This document shows positions 8,378 to 63,799 of a DNA stretch of 64,000 bases, in pieces. The stretch is from a virus (taxonomy: Duplodnaviria > Heunggongvirae > Uroviricota > Caudoviricetes): IMG/VR virus record IMGVR_UViG_3300045988_003495; one strand, given 5' to 3'. Both the position numbers and the translations under genes were made by a program. Under the pieces are notes generated by a model that had not been told where the DNA came from, made no database searches, and was given only the letters and a program-made list of their open reading frames with translations. The stretch's first letter is position 1. Every line of letters begins with the position of its first letter.

Positions 8378-8592
8378 AGCAAATTCTCGATGTCTACACG
8401 TTCACCTTTTAAGTAGCCTGTCTTATCTTTTGCAATTTTGCCTCCAGCAATAAAGATATCTACTCTACGAAGAAATTCAGGACTTACCTTCAAATTTCTA
8501 GAACCACTGCAAAGAGCAATAAACATTCCTTCAATCTCTTTTTGAGAATAACCAGCACATTGCAACTGAACTTCAATCTCTGAAAGCGTCAT
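8374..8592 (-). CDS. hypothetical protein, paralog of 7953..8186
   Basis: conserved C-terminal K-D-K-T-G-Y-L-K-G-E-R motif. Confidence 0.45.
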   Translation of the reverse strand: MTLSEIEVQLQCAGYSQKEIEGMFIALCSGSRNLKVSPEFLRRVDIFIAGGKIAKDKTGYLKGERVDIENLL

Positions 8593-25536: not shown

Positions 25537-27681
25537 ATGAACAAAGTACAGATTATTAAAAAGAATGGCTCACTTGAAGAACCTGATATCAAAAAAGTTT
25601 TAGCAGCAGTCACAAAGTCAGCTAACAGAGTTGGTTATAAAGAGCTTCCACCAGATGTTACTCAAGCTCTTGAGTCAGCATTTATGAGGATTCTGGTAAA
25701 GTCCACTAAGCAGAATAATTTGCTAATTTCGGTAAATGATATTCACAGTATTGTTGAGGGTGCTTTGGCAGAAGTCAATCACGAGATTTATGAGTCTTAC
25801 TCAACATACAGAAATTACCGTAAAGAGGTTGCTCAAAATTGGGATGAACTCTACCAGAAGACTAAGGATACCCTCTTCTTAGGTGACCGTGAAAATGCTA
25901 ACTTTGACAGCAGTTTAATTTCTACGAAAGGTTCAATTATCCGTGGTTACCTGACTAAAGAAATCTTTAAACAGTATCATCTAACACCAGAGGAACTTGA
26001 AGCCATTGAGAAAGGCTTTATCTATATCCACGATTTGAGAGACCTGATTTTTGGTGGTATTAACTGTTGCCTGTTTGACATTGGTAAAGTACTAAAAGGT
26101 GGCTTTGAAATGTCCGGCATTGAGTACTGTGAACCTAAATCTGTACTGTCAGCGTTGCAGGTTATTGGTGACGTAGTACTTTCAGCAACTGCACAGCAAT
26201 TTGGTGGTTTTACTTTAGCAGAGATTGATAAGGTACTTGTACCGTATGCTAAGAAGTCTCTACGCTATCATGCTGAGAAAGCATCATCTTATGGTATTCC
26301 TAAAGAGCATTACCACAATTATGTAATGGAGCAGTTACAAATTGAACTGACTCAAGGTTTTCAGTCACTTGAGATGAAACTAAATACCGTACCTTGTAGC
26401 CGTGGTGATTTTGCATTCACAACTTTAACATTTGGTTTACTTGACTCAGATATGTCTAATGAGGATAATCGACTACAATACATGATTGCAAGTACTCTCC
26501 TAGATGTTCGTATGAATGGACAAGGTAAGAGCAAAAAACCTGTTGTATTCCCTAAACTGGTTTATATTTATGACCAGAAGAGACATGATGAAAATATCTG
26601 TCAAGGTCACCTGTACAGTAAAGCCATCGAGTGTTGCTCTAAAGCAATGTACCCAGATTTCTTAAGTGTGTCTGGTCATGGTGCTGTAGCAGAGGCTTTT
26701 GAGCGTTCTGGTAAGGTAATTTCACCGATGGGTTGCAGAGCCTTCTTATCTCCATATTTTAATGAGGATGGGAAAGAGTTTTACGTTGGTCGTGCTAACA
26801 TTGGTGCTGTATCTTTGAACTTACCTATGATTTATCAGTACGCCAAAGAGAATGGTTTAGATTTCTGGAAAGAGCTTGATAAGTACCTAGAGATGATTCG
26901 CAGCTTCCACAAGAAACGCTACGAAATGATTGCTAATATGCCAGCAAGTTCTAACCCTCTCGCATTCACACAGGGTGGTCTGTACAAAGGGAATAAGAAA
27001 CCTACTGATAAGGTTGGCTGGGATATCGTGAAGTCCTTCACAGCTTCTTTTGGGGTTACTGCGCTTGATGAATTATCTGTTCTTGCTGAAGGTAAACGAC
27101 TTCATGAAGTTGGAAGTTGTAGTTTTGCATACGATGTTCTGGAATACATCAACATGAAAACTGAAGAGTTTAAAAATGAAGATGGTTTCTTATATGCAGT
27201 CTATGGCACTCCAGCAGAATCACTTTGTGGAACTCAGCTAAAACAGTTCAGAGATATGTTTGGAGTTATCAAAGGTGTTTCTGATAAGGAATACTTTACA
27301 AACAGCTTCCATATGAATGTTGCAGCAGACATCACACCATTTGAGAAGCAGGACTTAGAAGAACCTTTCTTCCATATCTGTAGAGGTGGCAGAATCCAGT
27401 ATGTAAGGGTAGCTAATCCAGAAAACTTACCAGCACTTAAAAGCTGTATTACCAGAGGGATGTTGAAGGGTTTTTATCAGGGGCTTAACTTTGACTTAGC
27501 AATCTGTGAACATTGTGGTAACAGACCAAAGGCTGATGTTGAAGAATGTGAGGTTTGCCATTCACACGACATCTCTGTGATTAACAGGGTGTGCGGGTAC
27601 TTGTCATTCACAAAAATTAAAGGTCAGTCTCGAATGAATGACGCTAAGATGGCAGAAATCAAGGATAGGGTTTCTATGTAG
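25537..27681 (+). CDS. nrdD: anaerobic ribonucleoside-triphosphate reductase
   Basis: 714 aa; C-terminal zinc ribbon CEHCGN...CEVCHSHD and glycyl-radical motif RVCGYLS. Confidence 0.9.
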   Translation: MNKVQIIKKNGSLEEPDIKKVLAAVTKSANRVGYKELPPDVTQALESAFMRILVKSTKQNNLLISVNDIHSIVEGALAEVNHEIYESYSTYRNYRKEVAQNWDELYQKTKDTLFLGDRENANFDSSLISTKGSIIRGYLTKEIFKQYHLTPEELEAIEKGFIYIHDLRDLIFGGINCCLFDIGKVLKGGFEMSGIEYCEPKSVLSALQVIGDVVLSATAQQFGGFTLAEIDKVLVPYAKKSLRYHAEKASSYGIPKEHYHNYVMEQLQIELTQGFQSLEMKLNTVPCSRGDFAFTTLTFGLLDSDMSNEDNRLQYMIASTLLDVRMNGQGKSKKPVVFPKLVYIYDQKRHDENICQGHLYSKAIECCSKAMYPDFLSVSGHGAVAEAFERSGKVISPMGCRAFLSPYFNEDGKEFYVGRANIGAVSLNLPMIYQYAKENGLDFWKELDKYLEMIRSFHKKRYEMIANMPASSNPLAFTQGGLYKGNKKPTDKVGWDIVKSFTASFGVTALDELSVLAEGKRLHEVGSCSFAYDVLEYINMKTEEFKNEDGFLYAVYGTPAESLCGTQLKQFRDMFGVIKGVSDKEYFTNSFHMNVAADITPFEKQDLEEPFFHICRGGRIQYVRVANPENLPALKSCITRGMLKGFYQGLNFDLAICEHCGNRPKADVEECEVCHSHDISVINRVCGYLSFTKIKGQSRMNDAKMAEIKDRVSM

Positions 27682-59202: not shown

Positions 59203-60618
59203 ATGAGCGAATTATTTAAACATGCGCACCTTCATGCAGGTCGAACTGAAAATGGTGCTGTAAACCATACTTCATCAATGTCTGCTCTTGTAGACTTTTA
59301 CAAAGCTGCTGGTTCAAGCCGTAGCAATGTAGAAATCTTACCAGACCTGTTCTACAAAGCTTTGCGTGAGGATGTTGATGTTGCAGTCCGTATTTTACTG
59401 CATATGCGAGATGTACGAGAAGGTATGGGTGAGCGTAAAGCCTTCAGAACTGTTTTGCTTCAAGCAATTGAAGACAAAGTTTTAGAGCCTACACAGGTTC
59501 TTCGCATTATGGATAAGATTGCAGAGCTTGGTCGCTTTGATGACTTCAAAATCTTTGTAGGTACTCGTTTCGAGACAGATGCCTTCAAACATTTAGAAGC
59601 AGCATTACTAGACCCTGCAACAGCAGGTTTAGCAGCTAAGTGGTTACCACGAGTCAAACCACGTCATAAGCAGTTTGTAAAACGTTTCTGCAAGTTTGCC
59701 AACTTGAGTGAGAAAGAGTACCGCACACTGTTGTCTGCACTATCTGATACAGTTGAGCAAAAAATCTCTGCTAATGAGTTTGGTAAGATTGACTACAGCA
59801 AGATTCCTTCACTTGCTGCTGCACGTTACCAAAAACTGTTTAACCGTAAGGATGGAGAACGCTACAAAGCTTACATTGAGTCTTTATCAAAGGGCGAGGC
59901 TAAGATTAATGCTGGTGCTGTTTACCCATACGATGTGATTAAATCTGTCAAGCATGGTAATGCAGATGTTGCCAATGAGCAGTGGAAAGCACTACCAAAC
60001 TGGATGGCAGAAGGTGAGAACATCTTGTGTATGACTGATGTTTCAGGCTCAATGTCTTGGGTGAATCTTGGTTCAATCACTGCCCTTGATATTGGTGTAT
60101 CACTTGCCTTGTATGTAGCAGAACGTAATACAGGTTGCTTTAAGGATGAGTTAATGGTTTATTCAACAAACCCTTACTTCATCGAACTGAGTGGTGATTT
60201 ACGAAACCGCCATCGTCAGGTGATGCGACATGTTGAATATGGCTCAACTAACCTACAAGCAGCTTTTGACCGCATTCTTGAGGTAGGTAAGAGAAACAAC
60301 TTGACTCAGAAAGATATGCCAAGTAAGCTTATCATCTTCTCCGATATGGAGTTCAATCAGGTTGATGGAGCTAACGGTCGTACAAACTTTGAAGCAATTC
60401 AGAGTAAGTACAAAAAAGCTGGATACGAGATGCCACAACTGGTATTCTGGTACTTAGCAAACCGTAATGGTACTTGCGAAGTGTCTGTTAAGGATAACGG
60501 TGTAGCGATGGTATCTGGTTTCTCTCCAGCCACTTTAAAAGCTCTGATTGGTGGTGAGAAGTTTGACCCAATCAGCGTAATGCTCAAAGCAGTAATGATT
60601 GACCGTTATATCTGGTAA
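59203..60618 (+). CDS. vWA-domain protein with helical N-terminal domain; candidate Ro60-like (TROVE/DUF2828-type) RNA-binding protein
   Basis: 471 aa; MIDAS-type motif ILCMTDVSGSMSW (DxSxS) with downstream Thr and Asp; helical N-terminal half; sits directly upstream of Y-RNA-like elements in the tRNA cluster. Confidence 0.5.
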   Translation: MSELFKHAHLHAGRTENGAVNHTSSMSALVDFYKAAGSSRSNVEILPDLFYKALREDVDVAVRILLHMRDVREGMGERKAFRTVLLQAIEDKVLEPTQVLRIMDKIAELGRFDDFKIFVGTRFETDAFKHLEAALLDPATAGLAAKWLPRVKPRHKQFVKRFCKFANLSEKEYRTLLSALSDTVEQKISANEFGKIDYSKIPSLAAARYQKLFNRKDGERYKAYIESLSKGEAKINAGAVYPYDVIKSVKHGNADVANEQWKALPNWMAEGENILCMTDVSGSMSWVNLGSITALDIGVSLALYVAERNTGCFKDELMVYSTNPYFIELSGDLRNRHRQVMRHVEYGSTNLQAAFDRILEVGKRNNLTQKDMPSKLIIFSDMEFNQVDGANGRTNFEAIQSKYKKAGYEMPQLVFWYLANRNGTCEVSVKDNGVAMVSGFSPATLKALIGGEKFDPISVMLKAVMIDRYIW

Positions 60619-60636: not shown

Positions 60637-60665
60637 TTGACAATGTGTTTGATACCCTTTAATAT
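60637..60665 (+). promoter_or_regulatory. strong sigma70-type promoter (TTGACA-N17-TAATAT) driving the tRNA cluster
   Basis: -35 at 60637-60642, -10 at 60660-65; inverted repeat gggtat/ataccc flanks the -35 and spacer. Confidence 0.55.
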
Positions 60666-60783
60666 GTTCTACATAGAAACGAAACGAGAGCTTTTCTAAG
60701 ATACTGAAAAATATTTTAAAAAAGTTCTTGACAACCACTAAAAAATAATGTTAAAGTGGTTACATAGAGTTTGAAAAGTTTAT

Positions 60784-60945: not shown

Positions 60946-60950
60946 GTTTT

Positions 60951-61027
60951 GACAGAAGACCAATTACAGCAAACTTAATCTTATTCATCTGAAGGTAAAT
61001 CGGACAAAGAAGAGATTTGGTCTGGTC
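60951..61027 (+). ncRNA. Y-RNA-like structured element A
   Basis: 5' motif gaCAGAAGACCaattACAGCAAac pairs with 3' motif tTTGGTCTGGt (agaccaa/ttggtct) enclosing about 55 nt. Confidence 0.45.
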
Positions 61028-61036
61028 ATTAAGAAT

Positions 61037-61113: not shown

Positions 61114-61116
61114 AAT

Positions 61117-61180
61117 TTACAGAAGACCGTATGCAGCAACAAACTACTTTTTGCGGATAAAAGAAAAAACACGGTCTGGC
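61117..61180 (+). ncRNA. Y-RNA-like structured element B
   Basis: 5' tACAGAAGACCGTatgCAGCAAcaaac pairs with 3' aacACGGTCTGGc. Confidence 0.45.
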
Positions 61181-61190
61181 AATGTATTAA

Positions 61191-61276: not shown

Positions 61277-61364
61277 GTGTCGTTATCCCGTAGATGGTAG
61301 CGGTGGGGACTGTAAATCCCTTGTCATTGAGACTCGGTAGGTTCGACTCCTACACGGCACACCA
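61277..61364 (+). tRNA. tRNA-Tyr (anticodon GTA), long variable arm
   Basis: acceptor gtgtcgt/acggcac, anticodon stem gggga/tccct, loop ctgtaaa, 15-nt variable arm, T-arm gtagg-ttcgact-cctac, CCA. Confidence 0.7.
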
Positions 61365-61386
61365 ACACTTAGCGAGATACTTAGTT

Positions 61387-61788
61387 ATGAGAGATGAAGT
61401 ATACAAATCACAACTTGGTATGAGTTTGGGAACTGCACAAAACAGACTAGTAAAAGATTTGCTATTCGATTTTATATGTAAGACAAATCAAAATAGATGT
61501 TTTCAGTGCGGAAAAGAAATGACTAGGGATGATTTCTCTATCGAGCATAAGACTCCGTGGAGACACAAAGATAATGCAAAAGAACTTTTCTTTTCACTAG
61601 ATAACATTTCTTATAGCCACCTGCGTTGCAACATGAAAGCAGCCAGACCAGCACAGATTTATGATAGAAAGCCTAAGCCAATTAAACACGGCACTGCACA
61701 CAGCTACTCTAAAGGTTGCAGATGTGATGAGTGTAGGCTGGCTAAGAATGCTGAGGGTAGGAAGCACTATAACCCCAGAAAGGCGTAG
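61387..61788 (+). CDS. HNH endonuclease inside the tRNA cluster
   Basis: CFQCGKEMTRDDFSIEHKTPW ... CRCDEC; ORF-track start 61294 overlaps tRNA-Tyr, so ATG at 61387 preferred. Confidence 0.55.
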   Translation: MRDEVYKSQLGMSLGTAQNRLVKDLLFDFICKTNQNRCFQCGKEMTRDDFSIEHKTPWRHKDNAKELFFSLDNISYSHLRCNMKAARPAQIYDRKPKPIKHGTAHSYSKGCRCDECRLAKNAEGRKHYNPRKA

Positions 61789-61820: not shown

Positions 61821-61896
61821 GGGGTATTAGTTTAGACGGTGAAAATACGGGATTATCTCTCCTGAGCCGCGAGTTCGATTCTCACATACCTCGCCA
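61821..61896 (+). tRNA. tRNA of undetermined identity (anticodon loop ttatctc, nominal anticodon ATC)
   Basis: good acceptor ggggtat/atacctc, D-stem gttt/aaat, T-arm gcgag-ttcgatt-ctcac, CCA; anticodon loop has pyrimidine at position 37 and A at 34. Confidence 0.5.
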
Positions 61897-61954
61897 ATTT
61901 TGAGAGGGCTATTTAGCCCCTCCCTTAAAGAGTTCTTACGAGTATCCTTTAAAG

Positions 61955-62034
61955 GAGCAGAAGACCAAATACAGCAAGTTACTTAAAATTTCAAGCCAAT
62001 TCAATTTTGAAAAATTTAAAACTTGGTCTGGCTC
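61955..62034 (+). ncRNA. Y-RNA-like structured element C
   Basis: 5' gCAGAAGACCaaatACAGCAAg pairs with 3' aaCTTGGTCTGGc. Confidence 0.45.
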
Positions 62035-62042
62035 AACAAATT

Positions 62043-62177
62043 TACAGAAGACCGTTTACAGCAAAACTTAAACAATCTATTTCTCGGTAAAGAAAAGGCG
62101 AAGGTTCGATTCCTTCACTCGGCAGATGTCGAGTTGGTGTAATGGTAGCACTTAAGATGATAAACAACGGTCTGGTA
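62043..62177 (+). ncRNA. Y-RNA-like element D with embedded circularly permuted tRNA-like module (YrlA-like)
   Basis: terminal helix agaccgtt (62047-54) with aacggtct (62165-72); inside: T-arm gaagg-ttcgatt-ccttc (62100-62116), acceptor-like helix actcggc-agat-gtcgagt closed by 4-nt loop (62117-62134), D-arm gtgt-aatggta-gcac (62137-62151); no anticodon arm. Confidence 0.55.
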
Positions 62178-62278
62178 ATTATCTTTGCAGTAGCTTATGT
62201 GGCTAATTATGTCGTCCCATGAGTGCCGATGAATTTCCTTAGCATGATTCTAGATTAGCTTAGTAGGAAATGACTCTA

Positions 62279-62485: not shown

Positions 62486-62560
62486 TGTGGGTTAGCATAA
62501 ATGGTAATGCAAACGGCTGATAACCGTTAGAAGAGGGTTCGATACCCTCACCTACAACCA
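62486..62560 (+). tRNA. tRNA-Ile (anticodon GAT)
   Basis: acceptor tgtgggt/acctaca, D-stem gcat/atgc, anticodon stem aacgg/ccgtt, loop ctgataa, T-arm gaggg-ttcgata-ccctc, CCA. Confidence 0.8.
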
Positions 62561-62575
62561 ATTTCAATAAAGTTG

Positions 62576-62604
62576 TTGACATTGATACGTGACTACTTTA
62601 TAGT
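62576..62604 (+). promoter_or_regulatory. internal sigma70-type promoter (TTGACA-N17-TATAGT)
   Basis: -35 at 62576-62581, -10 at 62599-62604. Confidence 0.55.
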
Positions 62605-62808
62605 AACCTTAGTTTTCGTTGCGTAGCGTCTATTTTGCAAATTTAAAATAAATGCAAACGACAATGTTTTTCTGGCAGTAGCTTGATAGGCTAAACACCA
62701 GTGAGGTCTTCCAATCCCTCATCAAAGAATTTGGCGTACTAGCCCACGGTATGATTAATAAGGTGGGCATCTTTAAGGGCTTTCTAAGAGAGTCTTTAAA
62801 GATAATTA

Positions 62809-62890
62809 CGGGGCGTATCTCAGCTGTCTTCTAAACAGCCGTTAACCGAGTAAGTGGAGTATGCGGGTTCGAGTCCTGCCGCCTCGACCA
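62809..62890 (+). tRNA. tRNA-like gene, possibly tRNA-Arg (anticodon TCT), atypical
   Basis: canonical anticodon arm gctgt-cttctaa-acagc, T-arm gcggg-ttcgagt-cctgc, acceptor cggggcg/cgcctcg, CCA; only 7 nt where D-arm should be, and about 23 nt between anticodon arm and T-arm. Confidence 0.35.
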
Positions 62891-63636: not shown

Positions 63637-63642
63637 AACATT

Positions 63643-63718
63643 GGGGATGTAGTTTACATGGTTAAAACATAAGTTTTGCAAACTTAAGTACAGGGTTCAA
63701 TTCCCTGCTTCTCCACCA
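63643..63718 (+). tRNA. tRNA-Ala (anticodon TGC)
   Basis: G3:U70 pair in acceptor (ggggatg/cttctcc), D-stem gttt/aaac, anticodon stem taagt/actta, loop tttgcaa, T-arm caggg-ttcaatt-ccctg, CCA. Confidence 0.8.
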
Positions 63719-63724
63719 ATTAGT

Positions 63725-63799
63725 GCATCCATAGTTTAAACGGGAAAATTACAGTCTTCCAAACTGAGGTTGAGGGTTCGATTCCCTCTGGATGCTCCA
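63725..63799 (+). tRNA. tRNA-Gly (anticodon TCC)
   Basis: acceptor gcatcca/tggatgc, anticodon loop cttccaa, T-arm gaggg-ttcgatt-ccctc, CCA. Confidence 0.75.

Follow-up and report, generated by a model that had tools for sequence, protein, structure and literature searches.

A candidate YrlA-like RNA with a circularly permuted tRNA module downstream of a Ro60-fold protein gene in Felix O1-like phages

Introduction

When the arms of a tRNA are found in a phage genome in the wrong order, with the two strands of the acceptor stem joined to each other by a short loop, what has been encoded: a damaged tRNA, a tRNA in pieces, or an RNA of another kind? This question is raised by positions 62041..62180 of a 64,000-nucleotide (nt) stretch of IMG/VR virus record IMGVR_UViG_3300045988_003495 (Caudoviricetes), which we refer to as the window. 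The RNA that these positions would specify is called element D, and three shorter elements that precede it are called A, B and C. All features of the window given below lie on its plus strand unless we say otherwise. An initial annotation, made from the sequence alone, had proposed that element D is a circularly permuted tRNA-like module attached to a Ro60-binding helix, in the manner of the bacterial YrlA RNAs. The answer that we favour, with a probability of roughly three in four, is that element D is a noncoding RNA gene of roughly 130 nt whose product would form a Y-RNA/YrlA-like ribonucleoprotein (RNP) together with a Ro60-like protein.

The surrounding phage is Felix O1-like (Felixounavirus); the region is 99% identical to that of Salmonella phage BPSELC-1, and related records number about 250. 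The tRNA cluster fills the last 3.3 kb of the window and comprises 15 tRNAs according to ARAGORN, every one on the plus strand. Over 62041-62180 both ARAGORN and Rfam are silent, the latter at gathering thresholds as well as at E≤10, and in public records element D is either unannotated or overlain by a spurious open reading frame (ORF) on the opposite strand. Our literature search found no description of these RNAs, nor any link between Y RNAs and the DUF2828 protein family considered below, apart from two speculations. The PhageMaP preprint reports that a Ro60-like protein, gp130, encoded upstream of the tRNAs of phage Bas63, counters the defence system Ppl, and it guesses that Y RNAs are hidden among those tRNAs.

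Anatomy of element D

Direct reading of the sequence matches exactly the order of parts first proposed. A T-arm of 5 base pairs (bp), GAAGG-UUCGAUU-CCUUC (62100..62116), is followed by the 3' acceptor strand ACUCGGC (62117-62123), which a loop of 4 nt, AGAU (62124-62127), joins to the 5' acceptor strand GUCGAGU (62128-62134); a U8-G9 linker (62135-62136) and a D-arm, GUGU-AAUGGUA-GCAC (62137-62151), complete the series. That is, the acceptor strands stand in the reverse of their order in a canonical tRNA and form a closed, acceptor-like hairpin of 7 bp (62117..62134), and there is neither an anticodon arm nor a CCA, as the initial annotation had also stated. The spacing over 62100-62151 is exactly that of a tRNA, with the T stem abutting the acceptor strand and 2 nt between the acceptor and D stems. 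The nucleotides of the tRNA elbow and core (G53, U54, U55, C56, A58, C61, U8, A14, G18, G19 and A21) can be read directly in their places. This distal, permuted tRNA body should, judging from its sequence, fold as a tRNA-like L with a normal elbow, without an anticodon loop and without a free CCA end.

The module is enclosed by a terminal helix, AGACCGU/ACGGUCU, in which basal A-U and G-C pairs precede five variable ones and which in element D extends to AGACCGUU/AACGGUCU (62049-62056/62166-62173), and the 5' strand of this helix is followed by an unpaired UUACAGCAA. In its longer form, UUUACAGCAA (62055..62064, directly 3' of the 5' helix strand), this unpaired motif is invariant in the Felixounavirus copies, and it is a candidate protein-recognition motif. 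Two features lie beyond those first described: a variable-arm-like hairpin with a UUUCU/AGAAA core (62077..62098) before the T-arm, and a lower stem UUAC/GUAA (62042-62045/62175-62178) below an AGA/G internal loop.

All of the element D hairpins, including the T, acceptor and D helices within 62043-62177, are recovered both by the minimum free energy (MFE) fold and by the RNAalifold consensus. An A/U-rich, 'anticodon-like' pairing, CUUAA/UUAAG, is seen in the single-sequence fold only. A strict T/closed-acceptor/D descriptor matches the 64 kb once on the plus strand and never on the minus strand, with no match in 100 shuffles; across 100 related loci the same descriptor yields 30 matches on the plus strand versus 0 on the minus strand.

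We rejected the possibility that element D is an ordinary, mis-parsed tRNA, since neither ARAGORN nor the Rfam tRNA model makes a call here and the permuted order is retained in related phages; nor is an ordinary tRNA seen at this position in the aligned relatives, a possibility that the initial annotation had itself raised. A tandem-tRNA artefact, of which Chen et al. (2014, PMC4201824) warn, was also rejected for element D, which has no 5' half upstream and no 3' half downstream, and whose acceptor strands covary. The 'tRNA pseudogene' annotations found in relatives were likewise set aside, since that label concerns a tRNA-Tyr remnant.

Conservation and covariation

Elements A, B and C contain the same frame as element D without its tRNA-like part. 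The sequence AGAAGACC occurs in four copies in the window, all on the plus strand and inside the cluster, and each leads into CAGCAA and is followed 60-125 nt later by GGUCUGG. Element A (60949..61030; 39.7 bits with the covariance model R1 described below) has a lower stem GAC/GUC, the helix AGACCAA/UUGGUCU and an unpaired UUACAGCAA. Element B (61116..61184; 37.4 bits) has AGACCGU/ACGGUCU with AUGCAGCAA, and element C (61954..62036; found by the frame descriptor at 61962-62030 and by motif pairs) has a lower stem GAGC/GCUC and AGACCAA/UUGGUCU with AUACAGCAA. A and B are matched by the frame descriptor as well, and all three elements are conserved. The helix that the initial annotation took to be common to the four elements is thus upheld as one helix with compensatory variants, GU/AC alternating with AA/UU at positions 6-7, whereas its exact 8-bp form is specific to D. 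The lower stem covaries too, as GAC/GUC, GAGC/GCUC and UUAC/GUAA.

Among 27 Felix O1-like loci, the order A-D is kept in all 27 and element D is intact in 25. Among the 12 distinct D sequences of this set the acceptor hairpin takes three forms that are fully compensatory, namely ACUCGGC-AGAU-GUCGAGU, ACACGU-UACG-GCGUGU and ACCCUUC-GCCAAACA-GAAGGGU; in two loci (L020 and L021) the variable-arm hairpin also occurs in a second version, CUUUCA/UGAGAG, different but pairing. At positions 8447-8540 of locus L009 (IMGVR_UViG_2706796742), a natural isolate, the 3' half of D is lost, and the remaining 5' half continues from the T-loop into the 3' end of tRNA-Lys(UUU). This T-loop-to-T-loop recombination deletes about 220 nt, and the case shows how identical T-loops can drive deletions in the cluster.

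For more distant comparisons we built R1, a covariance model of element D (on which D itself scores 172.7 bits), and searched it over the window and over 71 distant loci whose DUF2828 homologues share 29-46% protein identity. Full-length relatives adjoin DUF2828 genes at 40-46% protein identity. Their terminal helices are wholly different from that of D yet still pair (AGUAUAG/CUAUACU, AGAUUGA/UCAAUCU, UGGGUAU/AUACCCA), and the unpaired UUACAGCAA and the core of T-arm, acceptor stem and D-arm are conserved. R1 matches fall on the gene strand in 56 of 58 cases. The match at 63640-63764 of the window was discounted as a tandem-tRNA artefact formed by adjoining tRNA-Ala and tRNA-Gly genes.

When the 37 distinct sequences are aligned on the model, pairing is found in 92% of cells; the corresponding values are 62% after the columns are shuffled and about 40% when the partners are slid. 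Double-sided changes occur in 33 of the 35 pairs; the outermost, 'fifth' pair of the D-stem (a G.U pair in the MFE fold) alone fails and is unsupported by comparison. Every helix receives support, including the T, acceptor and D helices for which covariation had been proposed as a check: the T-arm is paired in 97% of cells family-wide, with compensatory changes, and the variable-arm hairpin in 81%, double changes occur in seven of seven acceptor pairs, and the 4-bp D-stem is supported.

The upstream protein gene

A 471-amino-acid ORF (59203..60618) ends 166 nt before the first tRNA, so that element D lies 1.4 kb downstream of it on the same strand. The protein matches Pfam DUF2828 and DUF7788 (3e-43 and 1e-29) and belongs to PHROG 850, 'RNA-binding protein'. 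An AlphaFold2 model based on a 28-sequence alignment (predicted local distance difference test score 83, predicted template modelling score 0.84) predicts a HEAT-repeat ring and a C-terminal von Willebrand factor A (vWA) domain with a MIDAS motif (metal ion-dependent adhesion site), which is the domain plan of Ro60/Rsr; the corresponding D279-x-S281-x-S283 is invariant in the family alignment. When the model is compared with the Protein Data Bank by Foldseek, the best eight matches are all Ro60/Rsr, at full length, with template modelling scores of 0.5-0.62 and 11-15% identity. They include Rsr of Deinococcus radiodurans, Xenopus and human Ro60 and the Ro60 of Thermus phage phiLo (2nvo, 2i91, 1yvp, 9nfa, 9l5y), and beyond them only isolated vWA domains are matched. 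We presume this protein, Ro60-like by its predicted fold only, to be the partner of elements A-D. The Ro60-binding helix of the initial annotation gains a Ro60-fold gene at close range on the same strand, but the helix itself lacks GNCGAA and is not the known Ro60/Rsr site.

Two sigma-70-like promoters, TTGACA-17-TAATAT (60637-60665) and TTGACA-18-TAAAGT with a TG (60728-60757), lie after the protein gene and before the tRNA/element cluster; each has 10 of 12 consensus matches in a scan of a region whose total of such sites is not above that of shuffles, and they are suggestive only.

Open and closed acceptor stems

Is the acceptor-like hairpin closed in the mature RNA, as the sequence of element D would have it? 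In M. smegmatis (Mycobacterium smegmatis), YrlA with its 7-bp stem is cut by RNase P and CCA is added in vivo. By this precedent element D, whose acceptor-like stem of exactly 7 bp sits on a 5-bp T stem, could be a two-piece, CCA-ended tRNA-like RNA: RNase P would cut in the acceptor loop 5' of G62128, and the upstream half would be trimmed and receive CCA. Such a split, open-acceptor molecule could meet the CCA-adding enzyme, synthetases or EF-Tu, and this may add to a Y-RNA role rather than replace it.

Several relatives speak for such an opening. N-CCA stands immediately after the 3' acceptor strand in the L020/L021 ortholog of D (GCCAAACA; L020 8521-8538), twice in L051 (4369-4515 and 4749-4887) and in L080 (7148-7295), each time followed by a spacer-like, A-rich stretch. 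This amounts to four or five of about 14 independent acceptor hairpins, versus the 1 in 64 expected by chance. These loops resemble a tRNA 3' end joined to the 5' end of the next tRNA, which hints at RNase P and 3' processing. Conversely, L080 (6895-7137) and L102 (9050-9320) contain unpermuted relatives: four cloverleaves with open acceptor ends, detected with the Rfam tRNA model or by descriptor, three of them with an encoded CCA. Their anticodon loop is replaced by an insertion of 52-55 nt that consists of the frame helix, a closing loop of 3-5 nt and then a CAGCA-type motif. All four are on the gene strand, none on the other, and ARAGORN misses every one. As read from these sequences, the family holds both circular permutations of one design, which indicates an origin at tandem tRNA junctions.

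For element D itself the two-piece molecule is unlikely. Its loop is just 4 nt and holds no CCA; the 6-bp stem of close relatives, with its stable UACG tetraloop, favours a closed hairpin in this lineage; YrlA of S. Typhimurium (Salmonella Typhimurium) is left uncleaved; and neither an anticodon nor another obvious identity set is present. By analogy with M. smegmatis, some members of the family, possibly including D with its 7-bp stem, may still be opened by RNase P. The initial annotation held that the module would not be chargeable, and this is unproven: D encodes no CCA, yet orthologous and related elements have N-CCA in the acceptor loop.

Distribution of the frame

The DUF2828 family has more than 3,500 matches among the scored candidates, and proteins with DUF2828/DUF7788 occur in at least 710 isolated phage records, whose hosts comprise Escherichia, Mycobacterium, Salmonella, Vibrio, Listeria, Staphylococcus, Campylobacter, Enterococcus, Bacillus and Aeromonas. 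Independently of R1, we defined a frame descriptor: AG and N5, a spacer of 1-4 nt, C[ACU]GCA, an insert, the reverse complement ending in CU, and then G. It yields 58 matches on the gene strand, 2 on the opposite strand and 2.6 in shuffles, with at least one match in 37 of the 71 distant loci. Among the 54 unique elements from distant phages, 40 lie at most 1 kb from the protein gene, 45 have CAGCA, 30 are short, 24 are long and 12 contain a T-loop; a single locus may hold up to seven copies. Nineteen of the element-bearing loci lack any tRNA gene, and the elements therefore track the protein gene rather than tRNA clusters.

R1 and the descriptor together place the frame beside DUF2828 genes in phages of Vibrio, Aeromonas, Listeria, Staphylococcus and Mycobacterium. 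For example, mycobacteriophage Kahlid has an element about 100 nt after its 'Ro-like RNA binding protein' gene (R1 E 2e-7), and the same type of RNA abuts the gene in mycobacteriophage Wamburgrxpress; three tandem short frames abut it in Staphylococcus phage SEP9, and in Listeria phage cka15 (L114 2615-2891) three tandem frames lie between a promoter and the Ro-like gene CKA15_055. The RNA family to which element D would belong is widespread among phages and apparently undescribed.

This distribution bears on two further explanations. The elements might be processing or punctuation signals of the tRNA operon, at which RNase P, RNase E or RNase III would enter to mature the adjacent tRNAs, and be unlinked to the upstream protein; they are indeed interspersed with tRNA genes, with which they probably share promoters, and tRNA-like structures are known nuclease substrates. 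We regard this as quite improbable, because in the 19 loci without tRNAs the frame abuts DUF2828 genes, often in tandem within the gene leader or trailer, because a conserved single-stranded CAGCAA has no role in known processing signals, and because paralogues A-C have no tRNA-like part at all. Alternatively, the frame could be a cis-acting, autoregulatory operator on the operon transcript rather than a stable RNA acting in trans, as its position between promoter and protein start codon in L030, L114 and L051 would permit. This proposal has an equally poor chance of being right: Felix O1-like phages, mycobacteriophages and SEP9 have the elements downstream of the gene, as many as seven copies are found at one locus, and an operator needs no elaborate, covarying tRNA-like module. 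That element D is a functionless, decaying remnant of two adjacent tRNA genes is almost certainly wrong, for even if the module was plausibly born at a tandem tRNA junction (relatives keep N-CCA and a spacer-like loop, the module of L080 literally is such a junction, and T-loop recombination occurs in the cluster), compensatory changes in close and distant phages keep all helices paired, which already contradicts decay, the T and D loops retain every elbow nucleotide, and the module always lies within the conserved frame and on the gene strand only.

Other features of the cluster and its relatives

Between the tRNA-Tyr and tRNA-Asp genes of the window, 61294-61788 holds an ORF that few relatives share and that is labelled an HNH homing endonuclease where it occurs in them. 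The segment of about 450 bp is absent from most related phages, which align in two pieces with 84-85% query coverage, and it looks like a mobile insertion within the tRNA/Y-RNA cluster. The tRNA-Asp gene at 61821-61896 has the anticodon AUC (A34) according to ARAGORN, a wobble base unusual for a bacterial-type tRNA. Downstream of element D there are weak Rfam matches to a permuted tmRNA (transfer-messenger RNA) at 62503-62686 (32 bits), to a tmRNA at 62618-62807 and to a tRNA at 62809-62887 (31 bits); the last is missed by ARAGORN, and relatives annotate tRNA-Arg there. A strong promoter-like site, TTGACA-17-TATAGT, is found at 62576-62604.

In Escherichia phage AYO145A (NC_028825; L116 2498-2755), elements C and D are covered by a 'hypothetical protein' on the opposite strand, which has probably been called spuriously where the genes specify RNA. 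In three metagenomic phages unrelated to one another, ARAGORN calls phage-encoded tmRNA genes no more than a few kb from the DUF2828 gene (L083 1257-1707, L099 1968-2372 and L094 10822-11176).

Phage cka15 offers several observations of its own. Beyond the three tandem frames and CKA15_055, an RtcB-type 'tRNA splicing ligase' (L114 5810-7021) is encoded 1.3 kb downstream, echoing the Salmonella rsr-yrlBA-rtcBA operon. The CKA15_055 protein has been detected in purified virions, and by far the most transcribed region of this phage is reported to be one annotated as three tiny coding sequences, CKA15_059-061 (PMC12282133). In that region (L114 1428-1979; about 26,195-26,746 of the record) we find a match to the Rfam ROOL RNA, RF03087, with 90.1 bits and E 4e-17, the gathering score being 99.1.

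Discussion

Several of our results weigh against regarding element D as the RNA of a Y-RNA/YrlA-like RNP. On the side of the RNA, position 15 is A and position 48 is C or A among relatives, so that the Levitt pair is not canonical; the folding energy of the single sequence gives z = -2.0, a modest signal; and the covariation alignment was fitted to the R1 model. The YrlA motif GNCGAAN0-1G is absent from the 5' region of D, which reads ACAGAAGACCGUUUACAGCAA, and D has no match to the Rfam YrlA family, RF02553, at E≤10. Relatives do match RF02553 (L065, 41.4 bits; L051, 38.2; L058, 35.8; Wamburgrxpress, 39.8; E from 1e-5 to 4e-4), but these matches are confined to the tRNA-like core, leaving out the outer helix and the motif, and stay far below the gathering score of 69. 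On the side of the protein, neither phmmer nor a family HMM (hidden Markov model) finds Ro60 sequence homology of the 471-amino-acid ORF against the Protein Data Bank at E≤10, and DUF2828 and DUF7788 are its only Pfam domains at E≤0.01, TROVE not being found. Finally, about half of the distant DUF2828 loci are without a strict-descriptor match, and element D is dispensable for propagation, because the isolate of L009 has lost its 3' half.

How would such an RNP work? From the promoters that closely follow the protein gene, element D would be transcribed together with the phage tRNA cluster, and tRNA-processing nucleases would release its RNA. The helix and CAGCAA frame common to A-D is predicted to be the binding site of the Ro60-like protein, and the tRNA-like module would be the effector end, showing a tRNA elbow to host factors that recognise tRNAs; candidates are modification enzymes, RNase P, exoribonucleases such as PNPase, and RNA-repair enzymes. 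By analogy with bacterial Ro60-Y RNA particles, the RNP might then act on structured or damaged RNA during infection.

The comparison with Bas63 suggests a purpose. Its gp130 and the 471-amino-acid ORF come from the same phage genus, are encoded directly upstream of tRNA genes and have a Ro60-like fold, a comparison made by the preprint's description only. Since gp130 is reported to counter Ppl, an anti-defence role of the RNP is suggested by analogy. A broader proposal, for which we would offer slightly less than even odds, is that DUF2828/DUF7788 proteins and CAGCAA-frame RNAs constitute a widespread, unrecognised phage RNP in which tRNA mimicry recruits or decoys host enzymes directed at tRNA, as a means of anti-defence. 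Its RNAs would share a tRNA scaffold that occurs in both circular permutations, with the acceptor closed and the frame open as in element D, or with an open, CCA-ended acceptor as in L080 and L102; the reported action of gp130 against Ppl would fit the proposal.

If the preferred, Y-RNA/YrlA-like reading holds, an unannotated gap in therapeutic and model phages (Felix O1, Bas63 and their relatives) becomes four candidate RNA genes, and the upstream 'RNA-binding protein / vWFA protein' gains concrete candidate ligands. The published guess that the Bas63 tRNA genes conceal Y RNAs, which act together with the gp130 that counters Ppl, is now directly testable. Ro60-Y RNA biology would extend to a large protein family, unrecognisable by sequence, in the phages of many hosts. 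In addition, the family supplies a natural circular-permutation series in which to study the evolution of tRNA mimics from tandem tRNA genes.

Comparison with known RNAs

Two-piece tmRNA and the permuted tRNA genes of Cyanidioschyzon have in common with element D a gene order in which the T-arm and 3' acceptor strand come before the 5' acceptor strand and D-arm. The products of those genes, however, are matured into chargeable molecules with an open, CCA-bearing end, and tmRNA contains a tag reading frame, whereas element D has a 4-nt closing loop and no CCA, anticodon or tag. We rejected a two-piece tmRNA outright: the loop AGAU lacks CCA, there is no tag, pair 3:70 is C-G and not G3.U70, and ARAGORN reports none.

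Closer likenesses are found among the partners of Ro60. As in D. radiodurans Yrn1 and the metazoan Y RNAs, a protein-binding stem would be combined with an effector domain, of the kind that tethers Ro60 to, for example, PNPase; the binding motif there, though, is a bulged helix of the GGUCCGA type, and the tRNA features of Yrn1 are only partial and in another orientation. Thermus phage phiLo likewise pairs a phage Ro60-fold protein, which is among the best fold matches of ours (9l5y), with adjacent small RNAs of a stem-bulge-stem form. The phiLo RNAs Yrl1 and Yrl2 differ in having been found by a CGAA motif and in not being termed tRNA-like, and the phiLo protein differs in being a recognisable Ro60 homologue (PMC12135203).

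The closest known system is YrlA. These RNAs have paired 5' and 3' ends, the motif GNCGAAN0-1G, and a module of variable arm (V), T, closed acceptor stem, UA and D (PMC4201824; bioRxiv 10.1101/312249), and they have been likened to tRNAs that are circularly permuted and whose acceptor stems are closed (Wang et al. 2018, bioRxiv 10.1101/312249). Their genes lie at most 4 kb from Ro60 on the same strand, and a shorter YrlB often accompanies them (PMC4201824; bioRxiv 10.1101/312249). A YrlA RNA is also expected to be bound in vivo by the Ro60 orthologue and to contain pseudouridine 55 and dihydrouridine. Element D shares the terminal helix formed by its paired ends, the single-stranded motif after the 5' strand, and the permuted-tRNA effector module, in which V lies upstream of the T, acceptor-like and D stem-loops; its order within the terminal helix, V-T-AS-(U,R)-D (AS, acceptor stem), is the published YrlA order, which bears out the architecture that the initial annotation had invoked. 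Like the YrlA genes, it lies no more than a few kb from a same-strand gene of the Ro60 type, where the roughly 4 kb allowed for a Ro60 orthologue compares with 1.4 kb from an ORF that is Ro60-like by predicted fold only; the short elements A-C resemble YrlB partners, and relatives of D match the Rfam YrlA model with E values of about 1e-5.

Several differences stand beside these likenesses. An AG-N5 / UUACAGCAA / N5-CU-G frame replaces GNCGAAN0-1G in the D family; the sole GGCGAAG in D falls within the junction of V and T, where several relatives have A in place of the C. The partner is a DUF2828/DUF7788 rather than a TROVE protein, and within the module the D lineage has U8-G9 where YrlA has a conserved UA, together with the non-canonical Levitt pair. 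As judged from sequence, then, element D is probably a YrlA-like Y RNA in which a different protein-binding module meets a different partner, a relative of Ro60 at the level of fold.

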